42,272 bases of DNA from positions 1-42,272 of the forward strand of contig JALHLM010000003.1 in the NCBI GenBank assembly GCA_022844585.1, given 5' to 3'. Below the pieces are notes generated by a model that ran no database searches, was not told the DNA's origin, and saw nothing but the letters and a program-made list of their open reading frames with translations. Both the position numbers and the translations under genes were made by a program. This DNA comes from Pirellulales bacterium. Lineage in GTDB: Bacteria; Planctomycetota; Planctomycetia; Pirellulales; JALHLM01. Positions within the stretch are counted from its first letter, which is position 1, and the number at the start of each line of letters is the position of its first letter. Positions 7,655 through 41,584 of this stretch are shown piece after piece.

Positions 7655-7876
7655 ATGGCGGCCGCAATGAAACCGCGATTCTCCATTCTCGCCCTGGTCA
7701 TCGTGACCACCTATGCGGCCGTGTTCGCGGCGGCCTTGTCGCAGCCACGCGGCGTCTGGCTGTGGATCTCGCTCTATCTGGTCGCCATTCTGCCGTTCCT
7801 GATCATCGACCTGCTGATGCAACGGCGCGTCAAACGCCGCGACCAAACGGACGGACGCCCGACCGGGACTGGCTGA
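7655..7876 (+). CDS. small two-helix membrane protein (hypothetical)
   Basis: The ORF runs 7598-7876. The ATG at 7655 gives MAAAMKPRFSILALVIVTTYAAVFAAAL plus a second helix WLWISLYLVAILPFLIIDLL and a basic tail. Start uncertain. Confidence 0.5.
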   Translation: MAAAMKPRFSILALVIVTTYAAVFAAALSQPRGVWLWISLYLVAILPFLIIDLLMQRRVKRRDQTDGRPTGTG

Positions 7877-7973
7877 CGACGGCACGCATGCGGTATCTTG
7901 CCACGTACGACGCTCGGGTTTGAACTTTCCGGGCGGTCGCGGATTCATCGCCGGCAGCAACGAGGCACGACGC

Positions 7974-8783: not shown

Positions 8784-8818
8784 CCGTGCGGAATTTGCAT
8801 CACGGACAGTTCCTGGAA

Positions 8819-9727
8819 TCATTTTTGCGGCCCGGCGGCAGGGCTTTTCCCCGCGGGCGGCAAGCCATAGAAGGCGGCGGCGTTGTCGTGAAACAGTTTG
8901 CTCTGTGCCTTTTCGTCGTGGTCTTGCACGATCTCTCGTAGCGCCGTGACCCATTGCTGATACGTTGCGCGAAGGGTGCAAACCGGCCAGTCACTGGCGA
9001 ACATCACGCGGTCGGGGCCGAAGGTGTCGATCGTGAAGCGGACGTTCTCGGCCAGGTCTTGCGGCTTCCATCCCTCGGCGGCCGAGGCTACGATGCCGGA
9101 GACTTTGCAGACGACGTGGTCGTGTTCGGCGAGATGTTGCATCCCACTTTTCCAATGGTTGCGCGCCTTCGCGTCTTGTTCTTGCACGCTCAAGTTGCCG
9201 CAGTGATCGACGATGAAGCGTGTGTGCGGGCACATCGCGACGAGTTTGTCGGCGTCGTGCAACTCGCCGGAACGCATACAAAGGTCGAAGCTGAGGTTCG
9301 ATTCTCCCAGCAATTGAATGCCGCGCACGAACGCGGGGTCGAGGCAATAGCCAGGGGGCGTACCGGCGCCGTGCAGCACTTGCCGCACGCCTTTGATATA
9401 ACGACTGCCGCGAAACTTGTTCAGATAGACGCCGAAACCGGCATCGGCGGGCCGGCCGGACATCACGGCGGCCGTCATCGGATTGTCCGGCTGTTGGCAC
9501 AGTTCGATGACATAGCGCGCCTCGGCTTCCTGTTGCGCGGGGTCGACGTCCACCTCCATGTACACGCTTTGCACGACGTTAAGTTCCGCCGTCGCCGCGA
9601 GATAGTCGGCCACGCGGAAGCTGCGGTTCAACCTGGCTTCGTCAGCGAGCCAGGGCAGCTTGAAGAGGTCCAAGTCCCAGAGATGCTGGTGCGTATCGAC
9701 GATCGGCAGCATGTCGCGCGTGGCCAT
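8819..9727 (-). CDS. amidohydrolase-2 family metal-dependent hydrolase
   Basis: The internal ATG at 9727 gives MATRDMLPIVDTHQHLWDL, with HxH metal ligands near the N-terminus. DHCG and a later D (FASDWP) fit the amidohydrolase_2 layout. Confidence 0.8.
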   Translation of the reverse strand: MATRDMLPIVDTHQHLWDLDLFKLPWLADEARLNRSFRVADYLAATAELNVVQSVYMEVDVDPAQQEAEARYVIELCQQPDNPMTAAVMSGRPADAGFGVYLNKFRGSRYIKGVRQVLHGAGTPPGYCLDPAFVRGIQLLGESNLSFDLCMRSGELHDADKLVAMCPHTRFIVDHCGNLSVQEQDAKARNHWKSGMQHLAEHDHVVCKVSGIVASAAEGWKPQDLAENVRFTIDTFGPDRVMFASDWPVCTLRATYQQWVTALREIVQDHDEKAQSKLFHDNAAAFYGLPPAGKSPAAGPQK

Positions 9728-9847
9728 GGCGGCGGTACTCGAAGGGGGCGTGCGAAGTGCCCGAGTATAGCCGCCCCGCTGCTTCCACTCACGCCGGGAA
9801 ACTGATAAACTTGTGTTGATCCGTTCCCTGGCCATGTGGGTTGAACG

Positions 9848-23000: not shown

Positions 23001-25150
23001 TGGTTGCCGATGATCCGCCACTTGTCGGCGTTGCCGGCGGAGAACGTGCTGTTCTGAATCACTTGCCGGTTGGTGCCCAACGGGTCTTCGACGACGCGAA
23101 TGTCATCGAGCAGCACTTCGCCGCTTTCGAGCAGGCCCATCACAAATTCTTGCCACTGCCCGTCGGGACCAACCTTGCTGGCCTGGGCGACGCCGCGATA
23201 CGTATACGTCCGCCATTCCGTCTGGCCGGTGGAATCGCTCGCCGCCCAGGCTTCCGGCGACGCGTTGTCCGCCCAGGGATCCCGCAACTCCAGTGTCACG
23301 CCGCCGCCGTCGGCGAACTCGGGCCAACGCCCGCCCTCATAGTAGTGCACTTCATCCGCGGGATTGCCGACGCTATCGCGGAGCCGAATGCGTTCGTCTG
23401 TATTGGACAGCGAACCGGCGAAGCCGCCGATGATCGTGGCCGATGGATACTTCGCGGCGAGCGCGACGGGATCGTTCGCCACGACCAGGTGCGCGCCTGG
23501 CGCCATGACGGTTCCCGCTGGAAAGACGTACTCCATGGCATCGTCGAACGACCAGCCGGAAAGATCCACCGGGAGGTTGCCGCGATTATACAACTCCACC
23601 CATTCTTCGGCGCTTTCGGCGAAGGGTACGGCCGGCTGCGGCGGCGTGATCAATTCCGCGGTGAGCAACGTGGCGCCGAACACGACATCGGTTGAGCCGA
23701 CCGTGCGCTGATGTGTTTCGACGGCCAGGTGATTCTCGCCCGCCACCAAGAACTCTGGCGGAATAACGAACGACTCGCTCATGATGGCATCGCCGACGGC
23801 CCCGGTGGCCTCGGTCAGATAGTTCAGCTCTTCTTCCAGCGTGTCCTGATTGAAGTCCAGGAAGCGATGCCCGTTGATATAGAACACGGCGCCGTCGTCG
23901 ACGACATGGCGCAACTGCACCGGCTGGTCCGACGAGTCCAGTTGGAAGGTCGTGCGGAAGTAGTAGGTCAGGAACCCGTGCGTCAGCGGCGTCGTCTTGG
24001 CGCCGGGCAGCGCCCCCGTCTCGTAGTAAAACAGGCCACCGCCGGACTTCCACTGCGTGTCGTTGTAGCCTGGTTCCCGCCAAGCTTCGCCACGATCCAA
24101 GCCGGAATCGTCGTAGCGCCAGGTCGCGGTGAGTGGCAACAGCGTGGTGGCGGGCCCGAACTCGCCCGCGGTGGCCGGCGAGCCCAACGTCGGTGCATCG
24201 TGGTACATGATCTCGTTGATCACAATGTCGTCTTGCAACGAGAACTCGTTTTCATCGCCGGGCGTCAACACTGAGGGGCGCAAGAAATCGTTCGTCATCG
24301 GATCGAGCCGGGCTTGCCCAAACTCGGTGACGCGCGCGGCGTCAACGATTTCCGCGCCGTTGTTCGCAGCCAGCAACAGTTCCTCGCCCAACCCGGGCTG
24401 AAAGCCGAGTTGCGCGACGTTCAGCGTCAGAAAGTCTCCGACGGGCAACGACTGCACCGGCAATGAATAGCTGTCGCCGGAGCCAGTCAAGACGCGATAG
24501 CCGTTGAGGGGCGCCGCGGCATCGCTGGTGTTCGCCAACTCGATCCAGAATTGATTGCCAACCGGCGCGATCTCCGACAGACGAAGTCCCACGACGATGG
24601 GCGCCGTCGGCACGCCAGGCGCGCCAAAGTTCTCTTGCCCGGGCGTCCCGCCGACGCGAACACTGCTGGCCCAGTTCGCCGCTGGTTCGCTGGCCAAGTT
24701 ACGATTGATCTTCGCGAGGCTGGCGCCGCTGCCATCGGGAGCGATCGGCCAGAGTCCTCCGTCGGAGTACTCGATTTCGTTCATCAAGCGATCGTTGCGA
24801 TCGACCAACTGGAGCGCGTCCGAGTTGTTGGAAAGCCGTCCGGTGAACGGCCCCAATGCTCCGGCAAACTGACCTGAGGCCGCGAGCGCTGTTGGATTGC
24901 GGGCAATGACGAGGTACTCACCGCCGCCCAGGAACGTGCCTTCCTCGAAGGTGAACTGAATGCCGCCGTCCAGACGCCAGTTCGACAAGTCCATGTCGAC
25001 GGCCATCTGATTGTGCAGTTCGACCCATTCCAACTGTTCGTCGACGTCGGTGGGATGATACATCAACTCGTTGAAGACGACGGTGCTGTCGAGGACGAGT
25101 CGTTGTTCGAGAGATTCCAACTGGATCCGACGCCGGCGCATGGAGTTCAC
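20060..25150 (-). CDS. giant secreted lamin-tail-domain (LTD) x4 / CotH kinase-like protein with a dockerin-like cassette
   Basis: 1696 aa with leader MRRRRIQLESLEQRLVLD. LTD signatures are FNELMYHP...EWVELHN, LSEIAP...FWIELAN, INEIMYH...EEWVELYN and IAEIHYHP...EFIELVN. A CotH-like core lies around aa 915-1290 (about 21281-22408). The cassette GDTDGDGEVGITDLNNVRNNFG x2 lies near the C-terminus. Confidence 0.85.
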   Translation of the reverse strand: MNSMRRRRIQLESLEQRLVLDSTVVFNELMYHPTDVDEQLEWVELHNQMAVDMDLSNWRLDGGIQFTFEEGTFLGGGEYLVIARNPTALAASGQFAGALGPFTGRLSNNSDALQLVDRNDRLMNEIEYSDGGLWPIAPDGSGASLAKINRNLASEPAANWASSVRVGGTPGQENFGAPGVPTAPIVVGLRLSEIAPVGNQFWIELANTSDAAAPLNGYRVLTGSGDSYSLPVQSLPVGDFLTLNVAQLGFQPGLGEELLLAANNGAEIVDAARVTEFGQARLDPMTNDFLRPSVLTPGDENEFSLQDDIVINEIMYHDAPTLGSPATAGEFGPATTLLPLTATWRYDDSGLDRGEAWREPGYNDTQWKSGGGLFYYETGALPGAKTTPLTHGFLTYYFRTTFQLDSSDQPVQLRHVVDDGAVFYINGHRFLDFNQDTLEEELNYLTEATGAVGDAIMSESFVIPPEFLVAGENHLAVETHQRTVGSTDVVFGATLLTAELITPPQPAVPFAESAEEWVELYNRGNLPVDLSGWSFDDAMEYVFPAGTVMAPGAHLVVANDPVALAAKYPSATIIGGFAGSLSNTDERIRLRDSVGNPADEVHYYEGGRWPEFADGGGVTLELRDPWADNASPEAWAASDSTGQTEWRTYTYRGVAQASKVGPDGQWQEFVMGLLESGEVLLDDIRVVEDPLGTNRQVIQNSTFSAGNADKWRIIGNHHGDVVADPDDPSNEVLRLRATGETEHMSNHAETTLKFGNDIVTIVNGREYEISFRARWVAGSRQLHTRLYFNRLVQTTEIDQPELRGTPGSDNTRLEENIGPTYTDFKHSPVVPAAFAPVTVSARASDAAGVASMTLWYAAAGGAWNSAPMTLGADGLHRGVIPGFAASTIVQFYVEGVDASPEAATSTFPARGRDARALYKVNDNQAATNGLHNLRLLLTQPDATLLHRTTNLMSNDWIPGTVIYNESEVFYDVGIRLKGSEHSRTTPQRLGFAVQFNAEQLFRGVHRTVAIDRSESVGFGQREMLIHAAMNHAEDLPTKYHDLIKVITPQATHTGGAELQLARYGSDYLDSQYENGDAGNMYEYELVYQLNSTDNGTPEGLKVPNPDSVVGTTIRDLGNNPEDYRWTYLLKNNRAEDDYSRLMTFVKGFAAGGGRDPVDPNEVIDVDQWMRGFAISMLSGAGDSYGGDGSQHNVMFYERPSDHRFLHMPHDLDAFYDVNRPLVPNNPDLPKLMNTPARARAYYGHVQDIISTTYNSTYMAHWATNYGQLLPAQPFASHLAFIVTRSNSILTQVKGRVAEIPFSITTADGMVVNEATATIGGNGWVNVREIRLAGSDQPLALTWTDLDSWTAKVPVPFGEHTLQLEAYDFRGKLIATDSIVVESTVSDRPLEDYLRIAEIHYHPAEGPPGGIYEDANYEFIELVNTGPIALSLANARFNVGISFDFATSAITELAPGARLVLVQNADAFASRYGDAKPVAGVFDGRLDNAGERLRLENKSGATILDFIYDDNWVPETDGSGYSLVIDDADGPTEAWEDGASWRASRDIHGSPGLDEPTLLGDTDGDGEVGITDLNNVRNNFGGVGLGDTNGDGDVNIADLNNVRNNFGASMPSPVASVAPRVTFASRTRVQEVDADQAYLFAPIASQPKDASRENSWDHALLELLHIEAGLPLKMQEGLLKDARPKSSWIAKDARLQR
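20333..20476 (-). repeat. tandem dockerin-like cassette, copy 2 of 3
   Basis: GDTDGDGEVGITDLNNVRNNFGGVGLGDTNGDGDVNIADLNNVRNNFG. It shares gccgaagttgttgcggacgttgttcaagtc with the other copies. Confidence 0.85.
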
Positions 25151-25275
25151 TCCGAGTGCAAATTCAAAAGGTCCCGCGCAGCGCGCAAGAGCGGCGAAGC
25201 GAAGGTTTCCCCCGGGTAGGGCGCAGACGCCCCCCGTCCTCAGCTTAGCAAGAAACTAAACCCAAATGGTGGAAG

Positions 25276-25309
25276 ACGATGGGCCGGACGCAGCGCGCCG
25301 GCCCATCGT
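25276..25309 (-). terminator. possible terminator hairpin between two minus-strand genes
   Basis: 12-bp GC-rich stem (acgatgggccgg / ccggcccatcgt) with a 10-nt loop, 13 nt downstream of the 25322 stop. The downstream U-tract is weak and delayed (cttccaccatttgggttt). Confidence 0.35.
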
Positions 25310-25321
25310 TCCCCCTTCAGA

Positions 25322-27550
25322 TTAAGCGAGACGGCGTCGCATGACGAGAGCGCCGATGCCCAGGCAAACGGCCAGCACGACGCTGCCCGGCTCCGGAACC
25401 GCGTTCGCCGGGCCGCCAGCCCCGAAGTTATTGCGGACGTTGTTCAGGTCGGTGATGGTGACGAGGCCATCGCCATTGGTGTCGCCCAAACCTGCGCCGC
25501 CGAAGTTATTGCGGACGTTGTTCAAGTCTTCGATGGTGACTTTCCCGTCGCCGTTCGTATCACCTTCCTGGCCGACCGCTCCGGCGATTCCGAAGAACTG
25601 CACTTCGCTCAACCCCGCGAACGCGGCATCCGGTTCCCCGCCAACGGCCGGATACGTGACGCCGTTGTGGTTGGAGCGAATGTCGAACCGCACGAAACGG
25701 ATGTCGTTGCGATCGAGGGCAATCGTCTCCGAGAAGTCGACGTCGCCGACGCCCGGCGCCACGTCCAGAGCAAAGCTGCCGGCCGGCGTGAAGGGGCCGG
25801 CGAAATCCGCAGCAACCGAAATATCAAACGCGTTGACGCCCCGACCCAAGAGTTCGGGCCGACCCTCCAGCGTTTCGTTGTAGTTCCAGATCTTCACGTC
25901 GGTCACGTCCGTGACGGCGCCCATGTCGAACACAACGAAGGGGGCGGTATCGGTGCCGCCTAAGAAGCCGACGCCGTTGGTAAGCCACATGAAACCATCG
26001 GGAACAATCGTGTGCGTCCCGGCGGCGAAGTCCATTCCGGAGCCATCCAGCATGTGCGAGGCGGCCCGTTCAAAGGGCGTCCCCAATTGGCTGGATACGT
26101 TTGCGATCGCTACATTCGGCAGCCGGTATTCAGTTCCCGGCGTCGGGGAACCAACATAGTTAACGGTCGCCGGGGCCAATTCGCTGCCTTCAGTGGGCAC
26201 TACGGCCAACGTGAGGTCTCGATATCCACCTGGACGAAACGGCTCGCCCAACTGAATGATCTCGTTGTTCGCCAGCGTCGTGACGCCGGGATTCCGCAGC
26301 TCACTCAGCTGTCGGTTGCGGGGATTTGCTTTTTCCCAATTGGGCGTCGGCTTATCGGTCAGGCTGTCCCACGTCGCTGGGTTCAGGCTGGCGCTTCCCG
26401 AGGCGATGGAATAGTTGTCCAGTTCGAACGGCGCTCCCGTCTGGTTCGTGAGCGACGTGACTCCGGAGTAAGGATTGACCGTCAGCACCAGCTGGGCGCT
26501 TGCGGCCGAAGTCAATGCACCGACCAAACCGACCACGGCAAGGCCCGCTGCGGCCTTGCGCGAGCGGCGTCCCACGTACAGCAGTCCCGCTCCCAGCGCC
26601 AATAACAAAACGCTCGACGGTTCCGGCACCGTGATGCCGTTCTGTCCGAGCCGCGTCTTCATCAAGCGAAAGTCAAAGCCGTCGACGCGGCCGTTGAGGT
26701 CGACGTCCCCTTGCTCGAACGTGTTGCCAGTGCCGAAGTTGTCGCGCAGAATGCCGTAGTCGGCCAGGTCGACCACGTCGTCGTAGTTGATATCGAACGG
26801 ATCGAACTCCGGCAGGCCAATGGGGCTTGTGCCATCGGCCAGCAGCGCGATCTGAGCGGACTTCAGCGGCTCATTCCAAAACGCCAGGTCATCCATCCAG
26901 CCGAGAAAGTTGGAGTAGCTGTCGCCCCGCGTGCCGACGATCAATGGATTGTCGTTGGTCACGAGCGGCCCGGCCAAATTCGACGTTCCCGCAGGTGCGC
27001 CGTCAACGTAGAACTGCACTGCGGCGCCGGCGTTGACCACAGCCGCCACGTGGTGCCATTCCAGCGGAGCGATTGCGACGTTGCTGCTATAGCCGCCCAG
27101 CGTCGGGCCTTCCGTCGTTTGGTGCAGGAAGTCGAGGAAGCCTCCTGGATTGATGCGGAGTTCGAAATTGCCGGGGTAGTTGATGGGCGCGGTGCCGCTG
27201 GGCCCCTTCACGGCGATGAAGTAATACGTCGCGGCGTCCGACATGTTCACCCAACCGGCGATGGTCAGTCCCGTGGTCATGTCCAGAGACGCCGAGTCGG
27301 GCACAAAGAAGCCGCCAGGTCCGCCTTCCATATTGAAGGAAGTCCCCGAGCCGATCTGAGGCGGCACATCGTCATGGAAAGTGCCGTGTTGAACCGAGGA
27401 TGGGTTATTGCCGAACCCTGAGGAGTCTTCCACTTCCTCGTCAAAGTTGTAGTAGGCGACCAAATCCGCTTGGGCGGTCGAGGCGGCCAACAACAGGCCG
27501 GTCAATGCCAATGCGCGCAGCGCGAGCCTCATGGAGTATCTCCTGTTCAT
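25322..27550 (-). CDS. composite secreted protein: two complete PEP-CTERM proteins fused in frame
   Basis: One 742-codon ORF. aa 1-332: signal peptide (LLLAASTAQA), a LamG-like body, a degenerate dockerin-like pair and the tail VPEPSSVLLLALGAGLLYVGRRSRK. aa 326-742: a second signal-peptide-like segment, a galactose-binding-like domain ending LSEVQFFG, a tandem dockerin-like cassette and the tail VPEPGSVVLAVCLGIGALVMRRRLA. Confidence 0.8.
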   Translation of the reverse strand: MNRRYSMRLALRALALTGLLLAASTAQADLVAYYNFDEEVEDSSGFGNNPSSVQHGTFHDDVPPQIGSGTSFNMEGGPGGFFVPDSASLDMTTGLTIAGWVNMSDAATYYFIAVKGPSGTAPINYPGNFELRINPGGFLDFLHQTTEGPTLGGYSSNVAIAPLEWHHVAAVVNAGAAVQFYVDGAPAGTSNLAGPLVTNDNPLIVGTRGDSYSNFLGWMDDLAFWNEPLKSAQIALLADGTSPIGLPEFDPFDINYDDVVDLADYGILRDNFGTGNTFEQGDVDLNGRVDGFDFRLMKTRLGQNGITVPEPSSVLLLALGAGLLYVGRRSRKAAAGLAVVGLVGALTSAASAQLVLTVNPYSGVTSLTNQTGAPFELDNYSIASGSASLNPATWDSLTDKPTPNWEKANPRNRQLSELRNPGVTTLANNEIIQLGEPFRPGGYRDLTLAVVPTEGSELAPATVNYVGSPTPGTEYRLPNVAIANVSSQLGTPFERAASHMLDGSGMDFAAGTHTIVPDGFMWLTNGVGFLGGTDTAPFVVFDMGAVTDVTDVKIWNYNETLEGRPELLGRGVNAFDISVAADFAGPFTPAGSFALDVAPGVGDVDFSETIALDRNDIRFVRFDIRSNHNGVTYPAVGGEPDAAFAGLSEVQFFGIAGAVGQEGDTNGDGKVTIEDLNNVRNNFGGAGLGDTNGDGLVTITDLNNVRNNFGAGGPANAVPEPGSVVLAVCLGIGALVMRRRLA
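25325..25399 (-). other. PEP-CTERM sorting motif (C-terminal)
   Basis: VPEPGSVVLAVCLGIGALVMRRRLA occurs directly before the stop codon. Confidence 0.85.
25421..25564 (-). repeat. tandem dockerin-like cassette, copy 3 of 3
   Basis: GDTNGDGKVTIEDLNNVRNNFGGAGLGDTNGDGLVTITDLNNVRNNFG. Confidence 0.85.
26555..26629 (-). other. internal PEP-CTERM-type motif in mid-ORF
   Basis: VPEPSSVLLLALGAGLLYVGRRSRK at aa 308-332 of the 742-aa ORF. No stop codon follows it. Confidence 0.8.
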
Positions 27551-32236: not shown

Positions 32237-33103
32237 TCAGGTGTTCGTTGACGCGGCGTTGCGGAGCCAGCGCAGAACCTGCCCGGCCAGTTCCGCATAG
32301 CAACCCAGGTATTGGTGGTTCGCGCCAGCGAGAACGCGCACGTCCGCTGTCGCCTCACCGGCTGCTTTGAGACGCTCGATCTCCTCCGGCAGTCCTGCGA
32401 AGGGTCCGCCTTCGCCCAGTTCCTCCGTGCCGAATGTCACCAGCGTTGGCGTTGTCACCTGTTTCAATAGCCGTGGCACGTGGTAGCGTTCCTCCGGCCC
32501 GTATTTGTCGACGTATCCCGCCGCTGTGACCACATACGGTAACGGGAACAGGACTTCCATCAATGTTTCGCCACGGCCGGCGGCGACATGGTCCTGCGCT
32601 TCACCAAGCGTTGATTGAAACAGTTCTGACTTCCGACCCGCCGCAAACCGGGCGTGCGATAGCCACGGCGGCGAAATCGCCAGCAGACGCACGATGGCGG
32701 GCCACTCTTGCTGAGACAATGCATAGATGCCTTTGAGTGCGCCCAGACTGTGCCCCAGCAGACCGATGCGTTGATAGCCGCGCTCGGCCAGCAACGCGAG
32801 CCAGGCTTGAAGATCGGCGACGCAGTCGGATACCCGTTCGTAGGCCGATCCATGGATCTTGCCGGCGCTCGTGGCGATCAGGTCGTGTCCGCGCGTGTTC
32901 ACCCGGAGCAGCGGCAAGCCGACTTCCAACAGGTACGGCGTCAGGCCGTTGAAGAACGCCGAGGCGTAGAAGTTGCTTCCGGTGCCATGCACGCCGAGCA
33001 GGCAATCGACGCCGTAGTCGGTTCCGCTGGCATTGGCTGGAATTAACACGCCGTCCAGGCGCAACGCATCGGCAGTCTGGACGTGCAGCAATTCAACGAG
33101 CAT
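32237..33103 (-). CDS. alpha/beta hydrolase
   Basis: Nucleophile elbow GHSLGA in LLGHSLGALKG, an HG oxyanion-type motif (GVHGTGSNF), and 288 aa length. Confidence 0.8.
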   Translation of the reverse strand: MLVELLHVQTADALRLDGVLIPANASGTDYGVDCLLGVHGTGSNFYASAFFNGLTPYLLEVGLPLLRVNTRGHDLIATSAGKIHGSAYERVSDCVADLQAWLALLAERGYQRIGLLGHSLGALKGIYALSQQEWPAIVRLLAISPPWLSHARFAAGRKSELFQSTLGEAQDHVAAGRGETLMEVLFPLPYVVTAAGYVDKYGPEERYHVPRLLKQVTTPTLVTFGTEELGEGGPFAGLPEEIERLKAAGEATADVRVLAGANHQYLGCYAELAGQVLRWLRNAASTNT

Positions 33104-33163: not shown

Positions 33164-34516
33164 CTATTTGACGCCACTAGCGCTCGATGCTTCGTCGGCG
33201 CTTAACAATCCGTCGGCGTCGGCATCCAGCGCGCGAAAGTGCTCTGCTGGCAGCGGCGACTCCCTCGCGGTCACGAGGCCATCGTCATTGGCGTCCATCG
33301 CGCGGAACCATTTGGGCGAGCTCGTGACTGCGACCGTCGGAGTGGTCGACCTACTGGATCGCTTGGGGAGCGCCACACCGCCCCATGATTTGGCGCTCGG
33401 TCCGACAAACTCGAGGGAAAAATATCGCCTCGACGGACAATCGATTTCGCTCGTCAACGCGACCGAAGCAAAGCTCAACTCCGCCATGCTCAACCGGCCG
33501 TTCGAGTCGCCGTCGATCAGAGCCGTGGGGTTCCCGGTGTGATCCGTAACCTGCACCCACACCTGGCAGGCGGCGCCTTGAGCGACCAGATCGCAGTAGG
33601 CGTTCAGTTCCTCCGACGTCAACTGTCCATCCGCGTCTCGATCGGCATAGCGTGCCAACTCGGTAAACCCGGAAAGACTTGGAGATTGACCAATCTCGTC
33701 GAGGCGGAGGAATCCGTTGCTGCCCGCGGACGCCTGGAACTGGGCCAGCAGGAACTCGCGCGTGGTCGCCACGTCGGGCGCCGAGCGCTCAGCTACGACG
33801 GTGAGTGTCCATGGCTCGCGCGGATGAGAAACCCGGAAGCGGCGCGAGGCCAGCCAAGTGCTGACGATGTCTCCCTGCGTTGTGGTGGCGGCTGCCGATT
33901 CTGGCAAATCACTGCCAAGTTCGATACGCAAGACCGCGCGCGGCGTCGATTCGACTTTCTGACTCAGGTCAGCGGCGTCCGCCTGGCGAAGAACGTCGCC
34001 AGCGAAGGCCAGGAACTCGTTTTCTTCCCAAACGTCGTCTTCATTCAAATCATAACGCCGCAACGCCTGTGGCAATGTGGTGTCGCTAGGCGTCGCCATC
34101 GCCTTATGAAAAATATGGGCCAATTGAAGGTCGCGCTCCGCGTGCGGAACATATTCAACGACGACGGGGGCAAATCCATGGAGGCGACTATACTCTTCCA
34201 TCTCCTGCGGAGCCGCCGCGCCATTCCGGTTTGCATCGAGCGTCGCGAAATCGAGTGTCAGCAGGCCGCGATCCGGCAGCGGCAGCGGCATCATTCGCGC
34301 CACTTCTTCCCGATTCAATGTTCCATCGCGATCCTGATCGAAGTAATCGACCAGTTTGGACAAAAAATCGCGCCAGGGCTTCTCGACATCCTGTCCATGG
34401 AGCGAAAGCTCCAGTGAGATCGCCGGCACGTCGTAGGGAGCGTTCGCTCGCAGGTCGATTTGCGCCTGCGCGCGGGATACGATCAGCATTAGCGCTATGA
34501 GAATCGAGAACCTCAT
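33164..34516 (-). CDS. secreted multi-EF-hand calcium-binding protein
   Basis: The ATG at 34516 gives the signal peptide MRFSILIALMLIVSRAQAQ. There are seven 12-residue EF loops: DQDRDGTLNREE, DANRNGAAAPQE, DLNEDDVWEENE, DRDADGQLTSEE, DGDSNGRLSMAE, DANDDGLVTARE and DADADGLLSADE. The ORF-track extension to 34870 overlaps the DUF1501 gene and is rejected. Confidence 0.8.
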   Translation of the reverse strand: MRFSILIALMLIVSRAQAQIDLRANAPYDVPAISLELSLHGQDVEKPWRDFLSKLVDYFDQDRDGTLNREEVARMMPLPLPDRGLLTLDFATLDANRNGAAAPQEMEEYSRLHGFAPVVVEYVPHAERDLQLAHIFHKAMATPSDTTLPQALRRYDLNEDDVWEENEFLAFAGDVLRQADAADLSQKVESTPRAVLRIELGSDLPESAAATTTQGDIVSTWLASRRFRVSHPREPWTLTVVAERSAPDVATTREFLLAQFQASAGSNGFLRLDEIGQSPSLSGFTELARYADRDADGQLTSEELNAYCDLVAQGAACQVWVQVTDHTGNPTALIDGDSNGRLSMAELSFASVALTSEIDCPSRRYFSLEFVGPSAKSWGGVALPKRSSRSTTPTVAVTSSPKWFRAMDANDDGLVTARESPLPAEHFRALDADADGLLSADEASSASGVK

Positions 34517-35799
34517 GCCAGCGCCTCGCGGATGGGCTGGCCAATAGGGTCCACCAGTCGAATCGGGCGATCGACGTTGGAGTCGTTCTGAATCCGCGGA
34601 TCGATTTCGAGCGCCGTGCAGACGGTCGCCATCAGGTCCGGCACCGTGACCGTCTGTTACTCGATCTGCATGCCGTCCGGGCTCGTGCGGCCGATGTGCT
34701 GGCCGCCGCGAATGCCGCCGCCCCCCAGCACGACGCTCCAGGCCGCCGCATAATGGTCGCGGCCCGCGCGCGGGTTGATCGCGGGCGTCCGCCCGAATTC
34801 GCCCATCCACACGATCAACGTCGAGTCCAACAGTCCGCGGCTGTTCAAATCTTCGATCAGCGTCGACCAACCGGCGTCGAGCGCGCCGGAGAGCGTCTTC
34901 ACCTGCTCGAAGTTATTGTCGTGCGTGTCCCAGCCGTCGAGCGTGACTTCGACGAAAGACACGCCACGCTCGACCAATCGACGCGCCAGCAAACAACCCT
35001 GGCCGAAGTGCCCGCGCCCGTACCGATCGCGGAGCGCGTCCGGTTCCTGATTCAAGTCAAACGCCCGCGCCGCGGTGGCGCGTTGCAAACGGACGGCGCG
35101 ATCATAGGCCGTAACATGCCCGTCCGTTGCGGCACCGGAATGTCCGGAGAGGAAGTTTGTTTCGAGATCTCCGAGCAACTGCAATCGGCGCTCGGCACGT
35201 CGCGGGGCATCCAGGCGAGATCCCAAGTCCTCGACGCGCAACTCGTCGCCACTCGCGCCGACCACGAGCGGGGCGTAGCGCGGTCCAAGAAACCCGGCGG
35301 AAACAGCGACTTGGCTGAATGCGCGTTGCGGCAGCACACTTACATAACTGGGCAAGTCGGCGTCCAGGTCGCCAAGTTCCTTCGCCAGCAGCGCGCCGAG
35401 CGATGGAAACCGGATCGACCCTTGGTTCACATAGCCCGTCCTCAGGTGATATGTTGCGCGGCCATGATCTCCTTCCTTGGTGTGCATCGAACGAACCACG
35501 GCGAGGTGCTCCGCCTGCCGGCCGAGCGAGGGCAGGTGTTCGCTGAATTGCACGCCGCTGACGCTGGTCTCAATTGGCCGGATCGGGCCGCCATTCGCAT
35601 GTTCGGGCTTGAGATCAAACGTATCCAACTGGCTCGGTCCGCCGGCCATCCAGAGCAAGATGCAGGCCCGCTGGCGATCCGGCGCCGTAGCGGCCTGTGC
35701 CGCCAGCCGACTCAGCCAGGTCGATGACAGAATGGCGCCGGCGCCATGCCCGGTCGCGCGCAAGACCGAGCGTCGCGTGAGTCGGTCGAACCTATGCAT
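34513..35799 (-). pseudogene. DUF1501 domain gene interrupted by an in-frame TAA (34657-34659)
   Basis: The open ORF 34657-35799 (380 aa, Tat-like TRRSVLRATG, LWMAGGPSQLDTFDLKP, GEFGRTP) ends ...GMQIE. The same frame continues QTVTVPDLMATVCTALEIDPRIQNDSNVDRPIRLVDPIGQPIREALA and stops at TGA 34513-34515. This continuation aligns with the C-terminus of the paralog at 12224-13642 (VHFHDLHATILHLLGLE...RDFRLTDVHGELVSEILA). Confidence 0.75.
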
Positions 35800-35826
35800 G
35801 CGTCGTACCTCGTGGTCCTGCGTCCG

Positions 35827-37389
35827 TCAGTGATTCATGCGAAACTCGGCGCTCGCCAGCAAGGCCCAGAACACGTCCGCCAGCAGCAGGCGTCGATCTT
35901 CCTCGGGCGATGCGTCGAACACTGTGGCGATCTTCGCGCGCTCCGTCGGTGCGGGCAATCGCCCCAGCACGGCCAGGTAGAGGCCGTCGATTTGCTCGTC
36001 GAGCGTGAGTCCCGGCGTGGAATCGATCGCCACGAGCGTGGGGCATTCGTCGATGTTGGCGGCCCAGTCCGTGAAGCTCCCGTTGAGCAACGTCAGCGCT
36101 TGCTGCACCGAAGTCTCCGGATCGACGGCCGCAGCGCCGCGTGCGAACCGCGTTTGCAACAGCCGCCGGGCGGCGCCTTTGTCTTGCTGGTCCCGGTATC
36201 CAGTCGCCAGCGCGATGCTATCGAAAAACTGTTCGCCGGTGAGCGACTTGAGCGGCATCCGGGCTGGCAACGCCGTGCGATCCTGACTGGCGTCGGTGCG
36301 CACGCTCGATCGTTGATACGCGTCCGTCAGACAAATCGCCCGCATCAGGTAGCGGATGTCGAAGCCCGATGCCGCGAAGGCCTGCGCTAACTCTTCCAGC
36401 AACTTTGGGTGGATGGGCGGATTGTCGTCGCGGAAATCGTCGACGGGCTCGACGATGCCGCGGCCGAAAAACTGCGCCCAAATTCGGTTCGCGCCGGCCC
36501 GGGCAAAATATGGATTGTCGCGCGCCGTGATCCAGGCCGCCAACATCGCGCGCGGCGACGGCTCGCGACTCCAGTCGGGCTCGTCCCCGACCAGAAACGT
36601 CGCCGCCTGCGCGACGTCTTTTTCCGGCGGCGTTACATGGCGCACCGCCACGGTCTCGACCAATGGGGCGAACATGCCTGCGCCCTGTCGCTGCACGCTG
36701 GCAAAGAACGCGGCCTGCTGCCAGAACTGGTCTTGGCTCCACGCCGCGAACGGATGATCGTGGCACTGCGCACATTCCATGCGCAACCCCAGGAATGTTC
36801 GCGTCACCGCGGCCGCAAGGTTTTCCGGCTTGGCATCTTTGACCGCATAGAAGGCCAACGGATTCGGCCGCACCGGGTCGCGCAACACCGGTTCAGCGCC
36901 CTGGCCGTCCTGCGCAATCGGTGCCGTCAGCAATTCGCGGACGAGCGCGTCATACGCGACGCCGGCCCGTGCGCGGTCCTGTAGCCAGGCCTCGAAGCCG
37001 ACTCGAAAGACGCCCGCCCCGCGATCGGCCATGGTCTCGGGCAGCAACTCTGCTCGCCAGACGTTGGCAAAATGCACGGCGAAACGCGGACTGTCGAGCA
37101 ACTGTTCGACGACCTGGGCGCGTTTGACGGGGGCGTCGTTTGACAGAAACTCGCGGACCTCCGAAACACGAGGAATGCGGCCGTTGAGATCGAGATACGC
37201 GCGGCGCAGAAACTCGGCGTCATCGGCCCGCGGCGCGAGTTGAATTCCCTCAGTCTGCCAATGTTGTTCGAGCAACGCATCGATGCGCGCGGCTAGTTGC
37301 GCAGCGCTCGCGCGCTCATCGCCGCGCGCACTGTTTACCACGAGCAGCGTGCATCCGACGACAAACGGAAGTGTCAGCCAGCGCAACAT
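35827..37389 (-). CDS. DUF1549 + DUF1553 domain protein (no cytochrome c module)
   Basis: Signal peptide, then FLRRAYLDLNGRIPRVSEVREFL (DUF1549-like) and CAQCHDHPFAAWSQDQFWQQAAFF (DUF1553-like). A 27-nt gap separates it from the downstream DUF1501 gene. Confidence 0.9.
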   Translation of the reverse strand: MLRWLTLPFVVGCTLLVVNSARGDERASAAQLAARIDALLEQHWQTEGIQLAPRADDAEFLRRAYLDLNGRIPRVSEVREFLSNDAPVKRAQVVEQLLDSPRFAVHFANVWRAELLPETMADRGAGVFRVGFEAWLQDRARAGVAYDALVRELLTAPIAQDGQGAEPVLRDPVRPNPLAFYAVKDAKPENLAAAVTRTFLGLRMECAQCHDHPFAAWSQDQFWQQAAFFASVQRQGAGMFAPLVETVAVRHVTPPEKDVAQAATFLVGDEPDWSREPSPRAMLAAWITARDNPYFARAGANRIWAQFFGRGIVEPVDDFRDDNPPIHPKLLEELAQAFAASGFDIRYLMRAICLTDAYQRSSVRTDASQDRTALPARMPLKSLTGEQFFDSIALATGYRDQQDKGAARRLLQTRFARGAAAVDPETSVQQALTLLNGSFTDWAANIDECPTLVAIDSTPGLTLDEQIDGLYLAVLGRLPAPTERAKIATVFDASPEEDRRLLLADVFWALLASAEFRMNH

Positions 37390-37416
37390 GTCAATTCCGT
37401 AAAAGTTTACGAAGCA

Positions 37417-38667
37417 CTATGGCGTCAATTGCACGCAAATCAGTTCTTTGTCATCACGCACGAATAGACGCCCGTTCGCCAAGGCCGGCGCTACCAACGT
37501 GCCGCCGCAAACCTTTGCGCGGCAGAGTTCATGTGCCCCTTCGCGGCTGACTTCCAACAGCGTCAGCAAACCGGAGTCGTTCAAGATCAACAGCTTTCCA
37601 TCGCCCAAGCGAATCGGCGAGGCGTGGAAATAGCCGATGCGTTCTTCCGCCCAAAGTTGCTTGCCACTCGCCGGATCGAGACACGTCAAACTAGTCGTCG
37701 GCAACGGTTCCAATGCATTTGTGATGAGATACAGTGCGTCCGCACTCGCGACACCGGACGAGAAGTAGCTTTTCGCCGCCGCATTCTGCCAATCTTCCGC
37801 TGCCGACCGGTGGTCGTCGGCCGTCTGGACCCGTACGGAGACGGCGCCGTGCGCCTGAGTGCTCCCAATGATCCGATCGCCCAAGACCAATGGCGTCGGA
37901 GAAGTACCTTGCGGCTGAAACACCATCGGATGTTCCCAACGCAACGAACCGTCCAGCGGGTCGATGCCCAGCAACCGGAGCGGCGTCATCAGCACCACAT
38001 CGGGCGCAGCGCCGGGCGTGCGGGCGCCGCCGGAAAACAGAATGGCCGATGAAGTGCTCGCGGCGTCATCGAAGGCTTGCCAGGCAACCTCCCCGTTCAC
38101 GGTGTTGAGCGCCACCGCGCAACGCCCCGGGCCGCCGACGCTCACAATCACGCGATTGCCAATCACCAACGGCGAACAACAGACGGCGAACCCTGGCAGT
38201 TCGGCCTGGAATTGCTCATATAAATCGACTTGCCAATGTCGCTGGCCGCTCTTGGCGTCATAGCAACTCAACACGCCGTTGATGCCGAGCGTATACAGAC
38301 GCCCCTGCGCCAAGGTGGGCGTGGCCCGCGGCCCGACGCCCAGCACGCTCTTGTAGCTGGGGCGATCGTACGTATCGCTCCAGACCCGCTCGCCGGTGGC
38401 GACGTTGAGCGCCAACACCTGTTCCTGTTCTTTGCCGGGCACGGACGAATGCATATAAACGAGGTCGCCCGATACGACTGGGGAACTAAACGACTGCGGC
38501 GCCGTGGTCCGCCATATAGCCTGCGGCGCCGTGGCGTCACTCCACGCGGCAACCGATTCGTGCGAAACGCCGTTCCGCTCCGGGCCTAGCCACTGCGGCC
38601 AATCGGCGGCCTGAGACCGGGAAGGTGCTAACAACAACAGGCCAACAAGCAAATACACTCGCAACAT
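37417..38667 (-). CDS. secreted PQQ-like (BamB-type) beta-propeller repeat protein
   Basis: A signal peptide ending SRSQA is followed by ADWPQWLGPERNG, the typical start of PQQ-like propeller proteins. Repeated beta-strand/Gly-Trp periodicity. A 27-nt gap separates it from the next gene. Confidence 0.8.
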   Translation of the reverse strand: MLRVYLLVGLLLLAPSRSQAADWPQWLGPERNGVSHESVAAWSDATAPQAIWRTTAPQSFSSPVVSGDLVYMHSSVPGKEQEQVLALNVATGERVWSDTYDRPSYKSVLGVGPRATPTLAQGRLYTLGINGVLSCYDAKSGQRHWQVDLYEQFQAELPGFAVCCSPLVIGNRVIVSVGGPGRCAVALNTVNGEVAWQAFDDAASTSSAILFSGGARTPGAAPDVVLMTPLRLLGIDPLDGSLRWEHPMVFQPQGTSPTPLVLGDRIIGSTQAHGAVSVRVQTADDHRSAAEDWQNAAAKSYFSSGVASADALYLITNALEPLPTTSLTCLDPASGKQLWAEERIGYFHASPIRLGDGKLLILNDSGLLTLLEVSREGAHELCRAKVCGGTLVAPALANGRLFVRDDKELICVQLTP

Positions 38668-38907
38668 GGTTTATCTCGTGGCGAATCGGAGGCTCGCATA
38701 ATCCAAAGGCGTAGGAACAATCCACAGATTGTAGCTGCCGCCGTCCAGCGCCGGCTAGCGTTAGTTTACGGTCTTTGTGTTGTTGTACAGAAGTGACGAG
38801 AACCTAACTTTTGTCTGCGTTAGACCTGCCTAACGGTCGGAAGCTTCGTGTTGGACGTCAGGCCATTCACGCAACAACGACTGCTTGGCCCCGGTTTCGG
38901 GCTTGAA

Positions 38908-39318
38908 TTAACTCAAATTCAAAAGTTGTCCCCAAAGTCCCGGAGAGACGTCCGTGGGAACCGACAATTGAATTCGCTGGAGCCAATCGCGTGGTTCGCC
39001 GCCCTCGACCGTGGCGAGTGCTACCGCGGCCAACGCGGGTGAGCGGCTGATGCCAGCACTGCAACAAACGAGCGTCGGACGGCGAGTCGAAAGTAAGTCG
39101 GTCAGAGTTCGCTTTGCCAACTGAAGTTGCTCCTGGCTGTTTTCAGGTCCATCGTGGAGCGGGATGCGGAGTGAAATCAACTCGCGCGGCAACACAATGC
39201 CTGGCTCTTCAGCGGCGAGTTGCAGGACCGCTTCAATTCCAATGTCGACCAGTGTCTGTATATTTCGACCGTCGCCGATATGACCGATCCAAAGCAAATG
39301 CGGTTCGATTTGCTTCAT
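38908..39318 (-). CDS. dual-specificity / Cys-based protein phosphatase
   Basis: The ATG at 39318 gives MKQIEPHLLWIG. The CX5R(S) P-loop VCCSAGISRSPA is preceded by an IPLHDG acid-loop-like segment. It starts 4 nt after the kinase stop. Confidence 0.8.
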   Translation of the reverse strand: MKQIEPHLLWIGHIGDGRNIQTLVDIGIEAVLQLAAEEPGIVLPRELISLRIPLHDGPENSQEQLQLAKRTLTDLLSTRRPTLVCCSAGISRSPALAAVALATVEGGEPRDWLQRIQLSVPTDVSPGLWGQLLNLS

Positions 39319-39322
39319 GATT

Positions 39323-41584
39323 CTAATTCTCGGCCTTTGGCTCAATTGCCGCCCCGCTGGGCTCGCCTTCAAGAGTCTCCGCCGCGATCACCACCCAGCC
39401 CGTATCGGCGAACTCGGCCGGGCGGCCGTGAACGATGACGGGCTCGAGCGCCGCGAGGCGTGCATGCTTCGCCACGGGATCGACGAAGGCTTCTGAGATG
39501 CTATCGGGCGAGGCTTCGAGCGAGCGGCCGTTGAGGCGGCGGTCGCGGCGTAGCTGAAGCGCGCGATCTAACTCCGTGGACGAAAGCCGCAAGGCGCCTT
39601 CGTCGAGCGTGCGGTGGCCCATCTCCGGATGATGCAGCACGAGACCGCGTCCGTTGAATTGATCGGGGCGGGTATCGACCAAGAGCGCGCTGCGGCCCGT
39701 GGAGAAATCGCCTAACTCGACCGTCATGCACAGCACGCCGACCCGAGTGCGATCGGCGCGTTCGCGGGCGTCACTCCAGATCGGCACCGAAAACGCGACC
39801 ATCAAGGTTTGCGTGACCGTGCTGTCGAACACCGCCGACATGTGAACCGTGCGATCGGTTAACGGGCCGAGCGATTTGGTTTCCGGCGCATCGGCGGGCA
39901 GGTCGCGACCGCGGCCATGGAAGTAATCGCGATGCCGATAGTTCTGGCCGATGCTGGAGCCTTCCGGCACGCGGGCTAACTGGGTGCCGTCAGTGGCGTT
40001 GACGAACCAACTCGCCGTACGCACGGCGCTGTTGTTGGCGATGTACCGCTTGTCGAGCCAGCGTTGGACTTCTTCGAGCGAAGCCGCCGGCGCCGGCTGT
40101 CCCGCGGCGATCGCTTCATTGGCTTGAAGCACGAGTCGGCGCAACTCCGCGGATTCCGCTTCGGATTCGAGGATCCGCCAACGCAAGTCAATTTCCTGCG
40201 CCACGGACTTGGCAAGGAACATCGCCGACGTGGCCAGGTTGTTGCGCCGCGAGGTTTCCGCGGAGGAGTGGGCACGATTGGCCGAGTCGTGCGCGAGTCG
40301 TTCGTTGCGCGCGAGCTGCGCGAGCCAGATCGCCGAGACGCCGACCACGAGCGCGCAGGCCGCTAGCCCGACCACCGCAACCTGCGTCGCGACACGATGC
40401 CGGCGGACAAAGCGGGCGACGCGCGCCGAGCGCGATTCGGCATAGGCGGTGACCGGTTCGTCGGCCAGATAGCGCTCCAGATCTCGCGCGAGTTCGATGG
40501 CCGTGTCGTACCGATCGCTCGGCCGCAGCGCCATCGCCTTGAGGCAGATCGCTTCGAGCGGCAATGGCGTATCTGGCTTCAAGTCCCGCGCGCGCTTGAC
40601 ACGGCCGTCGATGATGTTGGCTTTCACTTCGGCCAGCGTTTCGCCGATGACGGGGTTCACGCCTGTCAATAATTTGAACAACGTGGCGCCGAGACTGTAG
40701 ATATCACTGGCCGGAGTCGGCGCAAGGTCCGAGGCTTGCTCCGGGCTCATGTAGGCGGGCGTACCAGCGCCTCCGCCGGAGGACGTGCCGGCCTCGCTAC
40801 CGGAACTGGGCATCAAGGTCTTTTCGCCCGCGATGCGAAACTTGTCCTCGCGCGCCACGGGCGGGGCCAGGCCCCAGTCGACGACGATCGTTTCGCCGTA
40901 GCGCCCCAGCATCACGTTGCTGGGCTTGATATCGCGATGCACGATGCCGCGGTTGTGGGCGTAAGCGATCGTCTTGCAGACCGAGGCGAAGTTGTTGAGC
41001 AGCCGGTGGAATTCAAGCGTTCGTTCGGAGAGATCGGCCGGCGGGCGATTGTGAAAGCGGCGGATCGCGTCGTCCAGCGTGATGCCATCGATGTAACGCA
41101 TCACGTAGAAGAGACGTTGATCGGCGGTTTCGCCTAGTCCATATAAAGGGACGACGCCGGGATGTTCCAAACGCCCCGTGACTTCGGCTTCCAGTTCGAA
41201 GCGCTGCCGCGCGACCGGATCGGTACTGAGCTTGCCGTGGATGAACTTGACCGCGACGGTGCGATGCAATTGCCGGTCTTCGCCGACGAACACGGCGCCG
41301 AGCCCGCCTTTGGCGTGAAACTGCAGCGCGTGAATCTGCGAGGCGTGGCTTAACTGCTCGCCTGTCACGCTGTCCAGGTCGTGCGCGTCGGCATCCGATT
41401 TGCGCATTGCCGCGGCCACGCGGGCTTCAAAGCTCTGCAGCGCTGCGAGGCGCTCCTCGACGGCGCCTCGCAGATCCGGGCGCGAATAGCACAATTCATC
41501 AAGACTGAGCGAGACGCCGTCCTCCTGCGCCGCCAGCCAGCGGTCGAGCAACGATTCGATGACGGAATCTTCGGACATCGACAT
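39323..41584 (-). CDS. transmembrane Ser/Thr protein kinase with an extracytoplasmic Cache-like sensor domain
   Basis: The ATG at 41584 gives MSMSEDSVIESLL. Hanks kinase motifs are GGLGAVF, VAVK, HRDIKPSN, DWGLA and SPE. One TM helix (VAVVGLAACALVVGVSAIWLAQL) precedes a C-terminal region with NYRHRDYFHG and GVLCMTVELGDF, typical of Cache domains. The ORF-track extension to 42046 crosses a palindromic element and a divergent gene. Confidence 0.85.
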   Translation of the reverse strand: MSMSEDSVIESLLDRWLAAQEDGVSLSLDELCYSRPDLRGAVEERLAALQSFEARVAAAMRKSDADAHDLDSVTGEQLSHASQIHALQFHAKGGLGAVFVGEDRQLHRTVAVKFIHGKLSTDPVARQRFELEAEVTGRLEHPGVVPLYGLGETADQRLFYVMRYIDGITLDDAIRRFHNRPPADLSERTLEFHRLLNNFASVCKTIAYAHNRGIVHRDIKPSNVMLGRYGETIVVDWGLAPPVAREDKFRIAGEKTLMPSSGSEAGTSSGGGAGTPAYMSPEQASDLAPTPASDIYSLGATLFKLLTGVNPVIGETLAEVKANIIDGRVKRARDLKPDTPLPLEAICLKAMALRPSDRYDTAIELARDLERYLADEPVTAYAESRSARVARFVRRHRVATQVAVVGLAACALVVGVSAIWLAQLARNERLAHDSANRAHSSAETSRRNNLATSAMFLAKSVAQEIDLRWRILESEAESAELRRLVLQANEAIAAGQPAPAASLEEVQRWLDKRYIANNSAVRTASWFVNATDGTQLARVPEGSSIGQNYRHRDYFHGRGRDLPADAPETKSLGPLTDRTVHMSAVFDSTVTQTLMVAFSVPIWSDARERADRTRVGVLCMTVELGDFSTGRSALLVDTRPDQFNGRGLVLHHPEMGHRTLDEGALRLSSTELDRALQLRRDRRLNGRSLEASPDSISEAFVDPVAKHARLAALEPVIVHGRPAEFADTGWVVIAAETLEGEPSGAAIEPKAEN

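Follow-up and report, generated by a model that had tools for sequence, protein, structure and literature searches.

A putative exported DUF1501/EF-hand module beside, and probably independent of, a kinase and phosphatase pair in a Pirellulales bacterium

Does a Ser/Thr kinase and phosphatase pair that adjoins genes for exported proteins in a planctomycete genome form one signalling cluster with them, or do two separate units lie side by side? The question is raised by positions 33,164 to 41,584 of contig JALHLM010000003.1 from a Pirellulales bacterium (assembly GCA_022844585.1), of which a stretch of 42,272 nucleotides was analysed (the window). A sequence-only reading had described this region as a seven-gene cluster coupling a Cache-sensor kinase and a phosphatase to genes for a beta-propeller, a PSCyt2/PSD1 (DUF1549/DUF1553) protein, a DUF1501 protein and an EF-hand protein. 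Comparison with related loci suggests two independent units, and we give somewhat better than an even chance to the explanation that the second, a conserved operon, encodes an exported DUF1501 enzyme complex which probably depends on Ca2+. The core of the operon would be an orthologous PSCyt2/PSD1 and DUF1501 subfamily in which a third gene, encoding a secreted multi-EF-hand protein, is always present.

The region holds six genes rather than seven (Table 1), every open reading frame (ORF) being on the minus strand; a count of seven needs the DUF1501 gene to be split in two, or an alpha/beta-hydrolase gene at 32237-33103, outside the region, to be included. Most of the arrangement first described was found as stated. 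The phosphatase gene starts 4 nt past the kinase stop, and an AT-richer gap separates this pair from the other four genes. Junctions of 27 nt lie between the propeller and PSCyt2/PSD1 genes and between the latter and the DUF1501 gene, which, read through an in-frame TAA, ends in an ATGA overlap with the start of the EF-hand gene at 34516. The domain calls were likewise borne out by Pfam, with matches for Pkinase, PQQ_2, PSCyt2, PSD1, DUF1501 and EF-hand. Inspection of the N-termini gave export signals on all four products of the module.

Conservation was approached from three independent queries: the EF-hand protein, the DUF1501 protein and the propeller. A word-indexed search with the EF-hand protein returned three full-length metagenome homologs (31-39% identity), all three encoded immediately after a DUF1501 gene, and one long contig (locus L001) carried PQQ_2, PSCyt2/PSD1, DUF1501 and EF-hand genes in full order with no kinase upstream. 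A genome scan with an EF-hand alignment, using one genome per species, returned 36 loci, and their neighbours were tested by tblastn of the window proteins (30 evaluable loci with E<=1e-9). PSCyt2/PSD1 and/or DUF1501 stood directly upstream of the EF-hand gene on the same strand in 28 of the 30, both of them in 26 of those 28. The carriers belong to the Gemmataceae and other Gemmatales (Limnoglobus roseus PX52, with the locus at about 2.226-2.243 Mb of NZ_CP042425, and Zavarzinella formosa, Gemmata and Fimbriiglobus), and further to the Isosphaeraceae (Tundrisphaera lichenicola) and to Pirellulales metagenome-assembled genomes. More than 120 relatives of the window DUF1501 protein were found at 60-72% identity, and for all four orthologs sampled on long contigs the next gene encodes an EF-hand protein and overlaps by 4 nt. 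Neighbour calls rest on tblastn and Pfam; greedy ORF calling gave antisense artefacts in high-GC loci.

The junction itself is conserved: of 38 loci with both genes, 32 have the ATG or GTG of the EF-hand gene overlapping the DUF1501 stop ([AG]TGA) by 4 nt, and another has an overlap of 1 nt. EF-linked DUF1501 proteins are 51-72% identical to the window copy across families, against 32% for the window paralog, and EF-linked PSD proteins 38-68%, against about 28-35%. The linked copies are thus far closer than the paralogs of the window, which argues for a distinct orthologous subfamily and not a random pair. In all, about 40 loci from several families repeat this order and strand, and the flanks, roughly 500 kb in total, contain a single extra DUF1501 match, so that chance adjacency is negligible. 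As judged from these comparisons, the PSD-DUF1501-EF trio is a genuine conserved unit whose order and adjacency go far beyond chance.

The propeller belongs to the unit in part of this range. Wherever downstream sequence suffices, orthologs of at least 48% identity precede PSD-DUF1501 on its own strand (L001, L005, L007, L009, L011, L037, L041, L043, L044 and L125). A metagenome scan with the patterns FAVCCSPLV and DWPQW gave more than 500 relatives, of which 80 were kept (L041-L120). Those of at least 48% identity with enough downstream sequence, L041, L043 and L044, were linked to PSD-DUF1501 in three cases out of three, with an EF-hand gene following in L041 and L043. Most of the 80 kept relatives are not beside DUF1501 or PSD, and none of those at or below 45% identity is linked, which makes the propeller a subclade-specific accessory. 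Searches with both the EF-hand and the propeller queries therefore show the module order to recur, and the neighbourhood, which the sequence-only reading had allowed might be a random juxtaposition, is conserved for the propeller, PSCyt2/PSD1, DUF1501 and EF-hand block.

The kinase and phosphatase fared differently. The kinase has a Pkinase domain, one transmembrane segment and an extracytoplasmic domain of ~330 amino acids (aa). The Cache sensor first proposed for it did not emerge from the window protein alone (dCache_1 E=0.077, 13 bits, cut-off 45) and did emerge at the level of the family: dCache_1 matched at E<=0.1 in 14 of 19 aligned sequences (the window protein and 18 homologs; best 2.6e-9), and a profile of the aligned sequences weakly touched the double-PDC sensor DctB in the PDB (E 0.19). 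A dCache_1-like assignment of the outer domain is likely, if unproven. The phosphatase call stood as such, and its type could be specified as Cys-based dual-specificity or protein tyrosine phosphatase (CX5R motif CSAGISR).

Neither a kinase ortholog nor a phosphatase homolog was found by tblastn upstream of the module in any of ~40 module loci, and the phosphatase gave no tblastn match in any fetched locus. A search with the sensor domain found kinase orthologs of 79%, 50% and 48% identity (L121-L123), with neither module nor phosphatase found near any of the three. In L122, which has the closest ortholog (79.5% aa identity over the whole kinase, 77% at the nucleotide level), an unrelated 134-aa ORF comes next after the kinase gene, ahead of an opposite-strand gene; the ORF in the position of the phosphatase being unrelated, the kinase-phosphatase pairing is itself not conserved. 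Unrelated kinases occur near ~3 of 40 module loci and near ~4 of 75 unlinked propeller loci, which indicates no enrichment over background density. The proposed coupling is therefore not conserved, even in a relative with a 79.5%-identical kinase, and control of the module by phospho-signalling is unsupported, the kinase pair adjoining the module in the window genome only. By this comparison the pair is a lineage-specific neighbour outside the module, and since it is not conserved beside the module, the cluster resolves into two units split by the 240-nt gap. The gap appears to be the boundary between them, conserved synteny beginning at the propeller. A promoter and terminator consensus scan gave nothing above shuffled expectation; the gap is presumed to be the promoter region of the four-gene operon.

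A kinase of another kind was seen on the P0051 contig (JGI 3300047160, locus 6979-11675), where a Pkinase and FGE-sulfatase fusion gene lies 58 nt upstream of a DUF1501-EF-hand pair and occupies the usual place of PSD. It is unrelated to the window kinase and may stand there by chance, such kinases being abundant in these genomes.

The DUF1501 protein begins with MHRFDRLTRRSVLRA, in which an RR pair (TRRSVL) followed by a hydrophobic stretch can be read by eye as a twin-arginine (Tat) signal; R9 and R10 are invariant across orthologs. A sequence search of the PDB gave nothing significant, and profile searches gave marginal sulfatase matches, with no match to the Pfam Sulfatase family. An AlphaFold2 model was made for P0034, a 72%-identical ortholog, from a 51-sequence alignment (predicted local distance difference test, pLDDT, 80; predicted template modelling score, pTM, 0.84). 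Foldseek returned 135 PDB matches for it at E<=1e-3 (best probability 1.0, E about 1e-6), the best being LtaS/LtaP, S1-family sulfatases, sulfamidase, YejM and a protein annotated as 'alkaline phosphatase superfamily'; all 50 listed of the 135 were LtaS, sulfatase, YejM or other alkaline-phosphatase-superfamily entries. On the strength of this model, DUF1501 has an alkaline-phosphatase-superfamily (LtaS/sulfatase-like) fold. Profile searches, which are independent of the model, aligned the DUF1501 strand TLVVWMGEFGRTP with the sulfatase strand TLVVFTSD[HN]G and, in sequence profiles only, E334-F335 with the sulfatase D-N/H metal-ligand pair. Residues D59, D62, H112, D291, H293, E334, D348 and H349 are invariant and would be compatible with a metal site. 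The formylglycine motif CxPxR (C/S-x-P-x-R) is absent from the sequence.

The in-frame TAA of the window copy leaves an intact ORF at 34657-35799 (380 aa), past which the frame continues for 46 conserved codons to a TGA at 34513-34515. The affected position is Asp or Glu in 29 of 34 orthologs, within the motif VE[DE]RPV, and one G-to-T substitution in a GAA codon would probably account for the TAA. A very recent nonsense mutation, a polymorphism and a base error are all possible origins. Programmed read-through was rejected, as nothing supports it and the single change explains the codon. The 47 residues lost form a helix and two strands with pLDDT of about 88-95 in the ortholog model. Truncation, if real, would probably damage DUF1501 and would leave the EF-hand gene translationally uncoupled; either the window module has been freshly inactivated or the TAA base is an error or polymorphism.

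The EF-hand protein was described at the outset as secreted with seven EF-hand loops, and a regular-expression search agrees, giving seven canonical 12-residue loops behind a signal peptide; Pfam EF-hand_1, _5, _6 and _7 all score above their cut-offs. The loops follow the pattern D-x-[DNS]-x-[DNSG]-G...E and are paired, as four ancestral EF pairs with one loop lost. In an alignment with P0002-P0004 (columns about 150-165), an eighth loop, DADGDGKLSRAE, is present in P0003 and also in P0004, and has been lost by a short deletion in the window protein and P0002. The C-terminal ~200 aa are the most conserved part. An exhaustive hidden Markov model (HMM) search gave 903 representative clusters at E<=1e-30 (50% identity clusters), in length classes of about 430-480 aa and about 550-620 aa; the idea that the family is rare, suggested by the three homologs of the word-indexed search, was dropped on this evidence. 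Lanmodulin-like lanthanide binding was also rejected (LanM 27 bits against a cut-off of 135; no loop with Pro at position 2). The protein is predicted to bind Ca2+.

The PSCyt2/PSD1 protein had been said to lack the cytochrome c head seen in another copy. This holds for PSCyt1, neither PSCyt1 nor cytochrome c giving a match on it, and does not extend to the haem-c motif: CxxCH is still present as C206-A-Q-C209-H210, within C206-A-Q-C209-H210-D-H212-P, and is invariant in 20 orthologs. PSCyt2 thus possibly binds haem c. The copy that does carry PSCyt1 is a paralog at 9848-12217, part of a second PSD-DUF1501 pair in the same window. A PSD sequence search of the PDB gave nothing significant.

The propeller profile matches BamB (6e-11) and quinohaemoprotein and methanol dehydrogenases (E in the range 1e-9 to 1e-4, with 1e-9 for quinohaemoprotein alcohol dehydrogenase, ADH), and the protein also resembles 'empty quinoproteins'. 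Its signal peptide ends SQA/AD, with no Cys and no lipobox, and its motif FAVCCSPLV holds an invariant vicinal Cys-Cys (C163-C164). The Cys pair does not fit the active-site disulfide of quinoproteins, being misplaced by the (approximate) offsets to 1yiq and 1kv9. An enzyme using pyrroloquinoline quinone (PQQ) is disfavoured by length (416 aa against 570-600) and by TIGR03075 (36 bits, cut-off 480), the PF01011 match covering only residues 41-176. BamB itself is disfavoured by the missing lipobox and by TIGR03300 (54 bits, cut-off 285).

Many relatives carry longer versions of the operon. In L125 the order on one strand is PQQ_2, VOC, VOC, PSD, DUF1501, EF-hand; PSD is immediately preceded by tandem VOC genes in L006, L007, L009, L041, L043 and L125 and by a single one, at the contig start, in L124, and the VOC genes are downstream of the propeller where that contig end is available. 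The VOC proteins have no signal peptide and would be cytoplasmic. They pass the NCBIfam model ArsI/CadI NF041414 (127-131 bits, cut-off 116) and match the ArsI carbon-arsenic lyase structure 5C4P (E 1.8e-27), with the substrate-binding Cys-Cys kept in one copy; both copies have a weakly ArsM-like C-terminal region (40 bits, cut-off 500). MFS transporter genes and, in one locus, an ArsR/SmtB regulator gene are further additions (Table 1). More distant PSD-DUF1501-EF loci carry one to four tandem DUF1559 genes upstream of PSD on the same strand (19 loci), with a pilin-like N-methylation motif and SBP_bac_10, and in 14 loci a gene of about 150 aa, weakly DUF6795-like, upstream of PSD. None of these additions is found in the window, which holds the compact form.

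Table 1. Coordinates of the features discussed; positions without a locus number are those of the window, and bit scores in brackets are model cut-offs.
Feature	Location	Strand	Evidence or remark
Ser/Thr kinase, Hanks-type	39323..41584	-	Pkinase PF00069 103 bits (cut-off 31.7)
Phosphatase, 136 aa, Cys-based dual-specificity/PTP-like	38908..39318	-	Tc-R-P 30 bits (cut-off 27); DSPc 31.7 bits (just under cut-off 33.5); CX5R
Intergenic gap, 240 nt	38668..38907	no strand	53% GC, against 63% for the region
PQQ_2 beta-propeller, secreted, 416 aa	37417..38667	-	PQQ_2 138 bits
PSCyt2 (DUF1549) + PSD1 (DUF1553), secreted	35827..37389	-	PF07583 143 bits; PF07587 146 bits
DUF1501, Tat signal	34513..35799, in-frame TAA 34657-34659	-	PF07394 335 bits (cut-off 27)
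EF-hand protein, secreted, 450 aa	33164..34516	-	EF-hand Pfam families; seven loops
VOC genes	L125 5220-7402; L007 3008-5054; L009 3034-5080; L041 4069-6146; L043 11494-13591; L006 86-2128; L124 305-1222		
MFS_1 transporter	L007 1734-2975; L011 3457-4782; L009 1779-2969; L043 10200-11450		
MFS_1 transporter	L042 3511-4149		downstream of propeller
ArsR/SmtB regulator	L124 5565-5888		directly after EF-hand gene
DUF1559 / DUF6795-like neighbours	L010, L012, L015-L019, L021-L024, L026-L031		upstream of PSD
DUF1559 / DUF6795-like neighbours, also	L009 256-1714; L043 9167-10180		

Several explanations can be set against this evidence. Chance juxtaposition of abundant planctomycetal paralog families might be entertained, as Planctomycetes show strong expansion of the DUF1501, PSCyt/PSD, PQQ_2 and EF-hand families and the window itself holds a second PSD-DUF1501 pair; given the recurrence of order and strand with start/stop overlaps in about 40 loci from several families, and the single extra DUF1501 match in roughly 500 kb of flank, it has next to no chance, and it is refuted for the PSD-DUF1501-EF trio and, within its subclade, for the propeller. 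The sequence-only reading, in which a Cache-sensor kinase and a phosphatase would control a periplasmic module by phosphorylation as a single functional cluster, draws on the adjacency of the genes on one strand, and the unrelated fusion kinase directly upstream of the P0051 DUF1501-EF pair could be cited for it. We hold it to be very improbable: the kinase ortholog and the phosphatase are missing upstream in ~40 module loci, the kinase orthologs of L121, L122 and L123 have neither phosphatase nor module nearby, kinases are not enriched (~3/40 against ~4/75 loci), and the gap divides the two units. Moreover, all four module proteins are exported, so that a cytoplasmic kinase domain could not act on them directly.

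Two further readings concern what the module does. It may be a redox module, with haem c on PSCyt2, a cofactor on the Tat-exported DUF1501, and a quinoprotein-like propeller together with a Ca2+-binding protein, which would work like Ca2+-dependent quinoprotein dehydrogenase and cytochrome c systems and would extend the electron transport proposed for DUF1501/PSCyt modules by Kamneva et al. 2012 (PMC3542564). The invariant CxxCH, the twin-arginine signal, the propeller matches to quinohaemoprotein and methanol dehydrogenases and the vicinal Cys pair all fit it. We nevertheless think it possible but unlikely, since the fold of DUF1501 resembles alkaline-phosphatase-superfamily hydrolases and transferases and not redox enzymes, the PSCyt1 cytochrome head is absent, and most PSD-DUF1501-EF loci have no propeller. 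The propeller, where present, has the size of BamB (the mature form has about 395 aa, whereas PQQ dehydrogenases have about 570-600), is far under the PQQ-enzyme cut-off and also 'empty quinoprotein'-like, and has its Cys pair off the ADH vicinal disulfide by an approximate offset. Alternatively, the subfamily could be the extracytoplasmic front end of an organoarsenical or heavy-metal pathway, the window version being reduced by loss of the cytoplasmic part. The ArsI/CadI VOC genes upstream of PSD (Table 1), the frequent MFS transporter and the ArsR/SmtB gene after the EF-hand gene in L124 speak for this. It is rather doubtful all the same: ArsI/CadI genes are absent from the window and from the compact loci L001, L005, L037 and L044, the distant PSD-DUF1501-EF loci all lack them and have DUF1559 and DUF6795-like genes instead, not all ArsI/CadI members are arsenic enzymes, the ArsM-like match is far under its cut-off, and no paper was found linking DUF1501/PSCyt/PSD families with arsenic. 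A bolder form, which we rate as improbable, would make the EF-hand-coupled subfamily the periplasmic front end of an unrecognised natural organo-metalloid pathway (arsenosugars, arsenolipids or similar esters), in which a Ca2+/EF-hand-dependent DUF1501 would release a small organo-arsenical, MFS would import it and tandem ArsI-ArsM-like fusions would cleave it.

In the explanation that we favour, a Ca2+-dependent exported enzyme complex, the Tat-exported DUF1501 would be the catalytic subunit and act as a metal-dependent hydrolase or transferase. Synthesised in concert with it, the EF-hand protein would bind it as a stoichiometric Ca2+-dependent subunit, serving its activation, its stabilisation or the supply of Ca2+. 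PSCyt2/PSD1 would be the substrate-binding partner, possibly with haem, and the propeller a scaffold, the four proteins jointly processing an extracytoplasmic substrate. In many relatives the product would be passed to an MFS transporter and to cytoplasmic ArsI/CadI-type enzymes of the same operon.

A number of points weigh against this explanation. Formation of a complex is deduced only from gene order and overlapping start and stop codons, and the upstream PSD gene is missing in two of the four sampled DUF1501-EF pairs. DUF1501 is without CxPxR, and its nucleophile and metal site were not located. The EF-hand model was poor (pLDDT 60; 4-sequence alignment) and gave generic calmodulin-like matches only, Foldseek returning weak hits to calmodulin and calcium-dependent protein kinase (CDPK)-like entries at E>0.01. 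Tat export argues that DUF1501 folds, perhaps metal-loaded, before meeting its Sec-exported EF-hand partner, and the invariant CxxCH with the Tat signal fits a redox role equally well. In the window copy, finally, the nonsense codon removes an ordered C-terminal helix and two strands.

Genetic modules of DUF1501 with PSCyt/PSD1 genes were reportedly described by Studholme et al. in 2004. Several architectures, including a four-gene PSCyt1/WD40 type, are given by Kamneva et al. 2012 (PMC3542564), where EF-hand, PQQ, propeller and calcium are unmentioned. The present module shares with those of Planctomycetes and Verrucomicrobia a Tat-signal DUF1501 beside a PSCyt2/PSD1 protein with CxxCH, all exported and highly paralogous. 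It differs in lacking PSCyt1, a domain carried by the partner in many but not all of the known variants, and in its added genes: one for a multi-EF-hand protein, coupled by translation, and within a single subclade one for a propeller of PQQ_2 rather than WD40 type. We found no paper on an association of EF-hand or PQQ-propeller proteins with DUF1501 in the literature searched, in line with the first impression that the combination was undescribed; the EF-hand-coupled four-protein operon is an undescribed form of the known DUF1501/PSCyt-PSD module.

The single components also have known counterparts. With the alkaline-phosphatase superfamily (type I sulfatases, which use active-site Ca2+, LtaS and YejM), DUF1501 shares the predicted fold and the aligned TLVVxxxD[HN]G strand region; it differs in having no CxPxR and a Glu-Phe-Gly at the Asp-His/Asn ligand position, and its template modelling (TM) scores are ~0.4. 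LanM, XopAW, EfhP and calsymin are secreted or periplasmic bacterial EF-hand proteins. Like these, the module EF-hand protein would be Sec-exported, has several canonical EF-hand loops and would act outside the cytoplasm, yet it falls far under the family cut-offs (XopAW 50 against 120 bits, LanM 27 against 135) and is of much greater size, its four EF pairs being joined by conserved linkers outside the EF-hands. Overlap of the start codon with an enzyme gene is found only in the module family, and not in LanM, XopAW, EfhP or calsymin. The propeller has PQQ_2 repeats consistent, from the repeats alone, with the eight-bladed propeller of BamB and quinoprotein dehydrogenases, and differs from these in lacking the lipobox and the size and insertions of PQQ enzymes and in its own FAVCCSPLV motif.

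Other genes of the window were noted in passing. The alpha/beta-hydrolase gene at 32237-33103 follows the EF-hand gene after 60 nt and shares its strand; none of the related loci has an equivalent, and it is therefore placed outside the conserved module. At 20060-27550 a 1696-aa protein with four Lamin-tail domains and weak CotH and CBM_4_9 matches adjoins a 742-aa protein with Laminin_G_3, Dockerin and PEP-CTERM, both large and exported. A gene at 1937-3334 has DUF6513, pterin-binding and DUF4346 domains, a combination that occurs among planctomycete pterin-dependent one-carbon (C1) transfer genes.

The DUF1501 and PSCyt/PSD families are highly expanded in Planctomycetes and Verrucomicrobia, and the literature searched holds an established function for none of them. 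The EF-hand subfamily gives handles on this problem in the form of an obligate third subunit with a predicted Ca2+ ligand and a conserved stop/start overlap that predicts a physical complex. Cultured carriers exist (Limnoglobus roseus PX52, Zavarzinella formosa, Gemmata and Tundrisphaera lichenicola), and a large unnamed family of secreted multi-EF-hand proteins has been defined. In many genomes, operon partners of known chemistry (ArsI/CadI, MFS and ArsR) hint at substrates, and an organo-metalloid pathway, if true, would be the first case in which a substrate class is assigned to a member of the DUF1501/PSCyt/PSD expansion.

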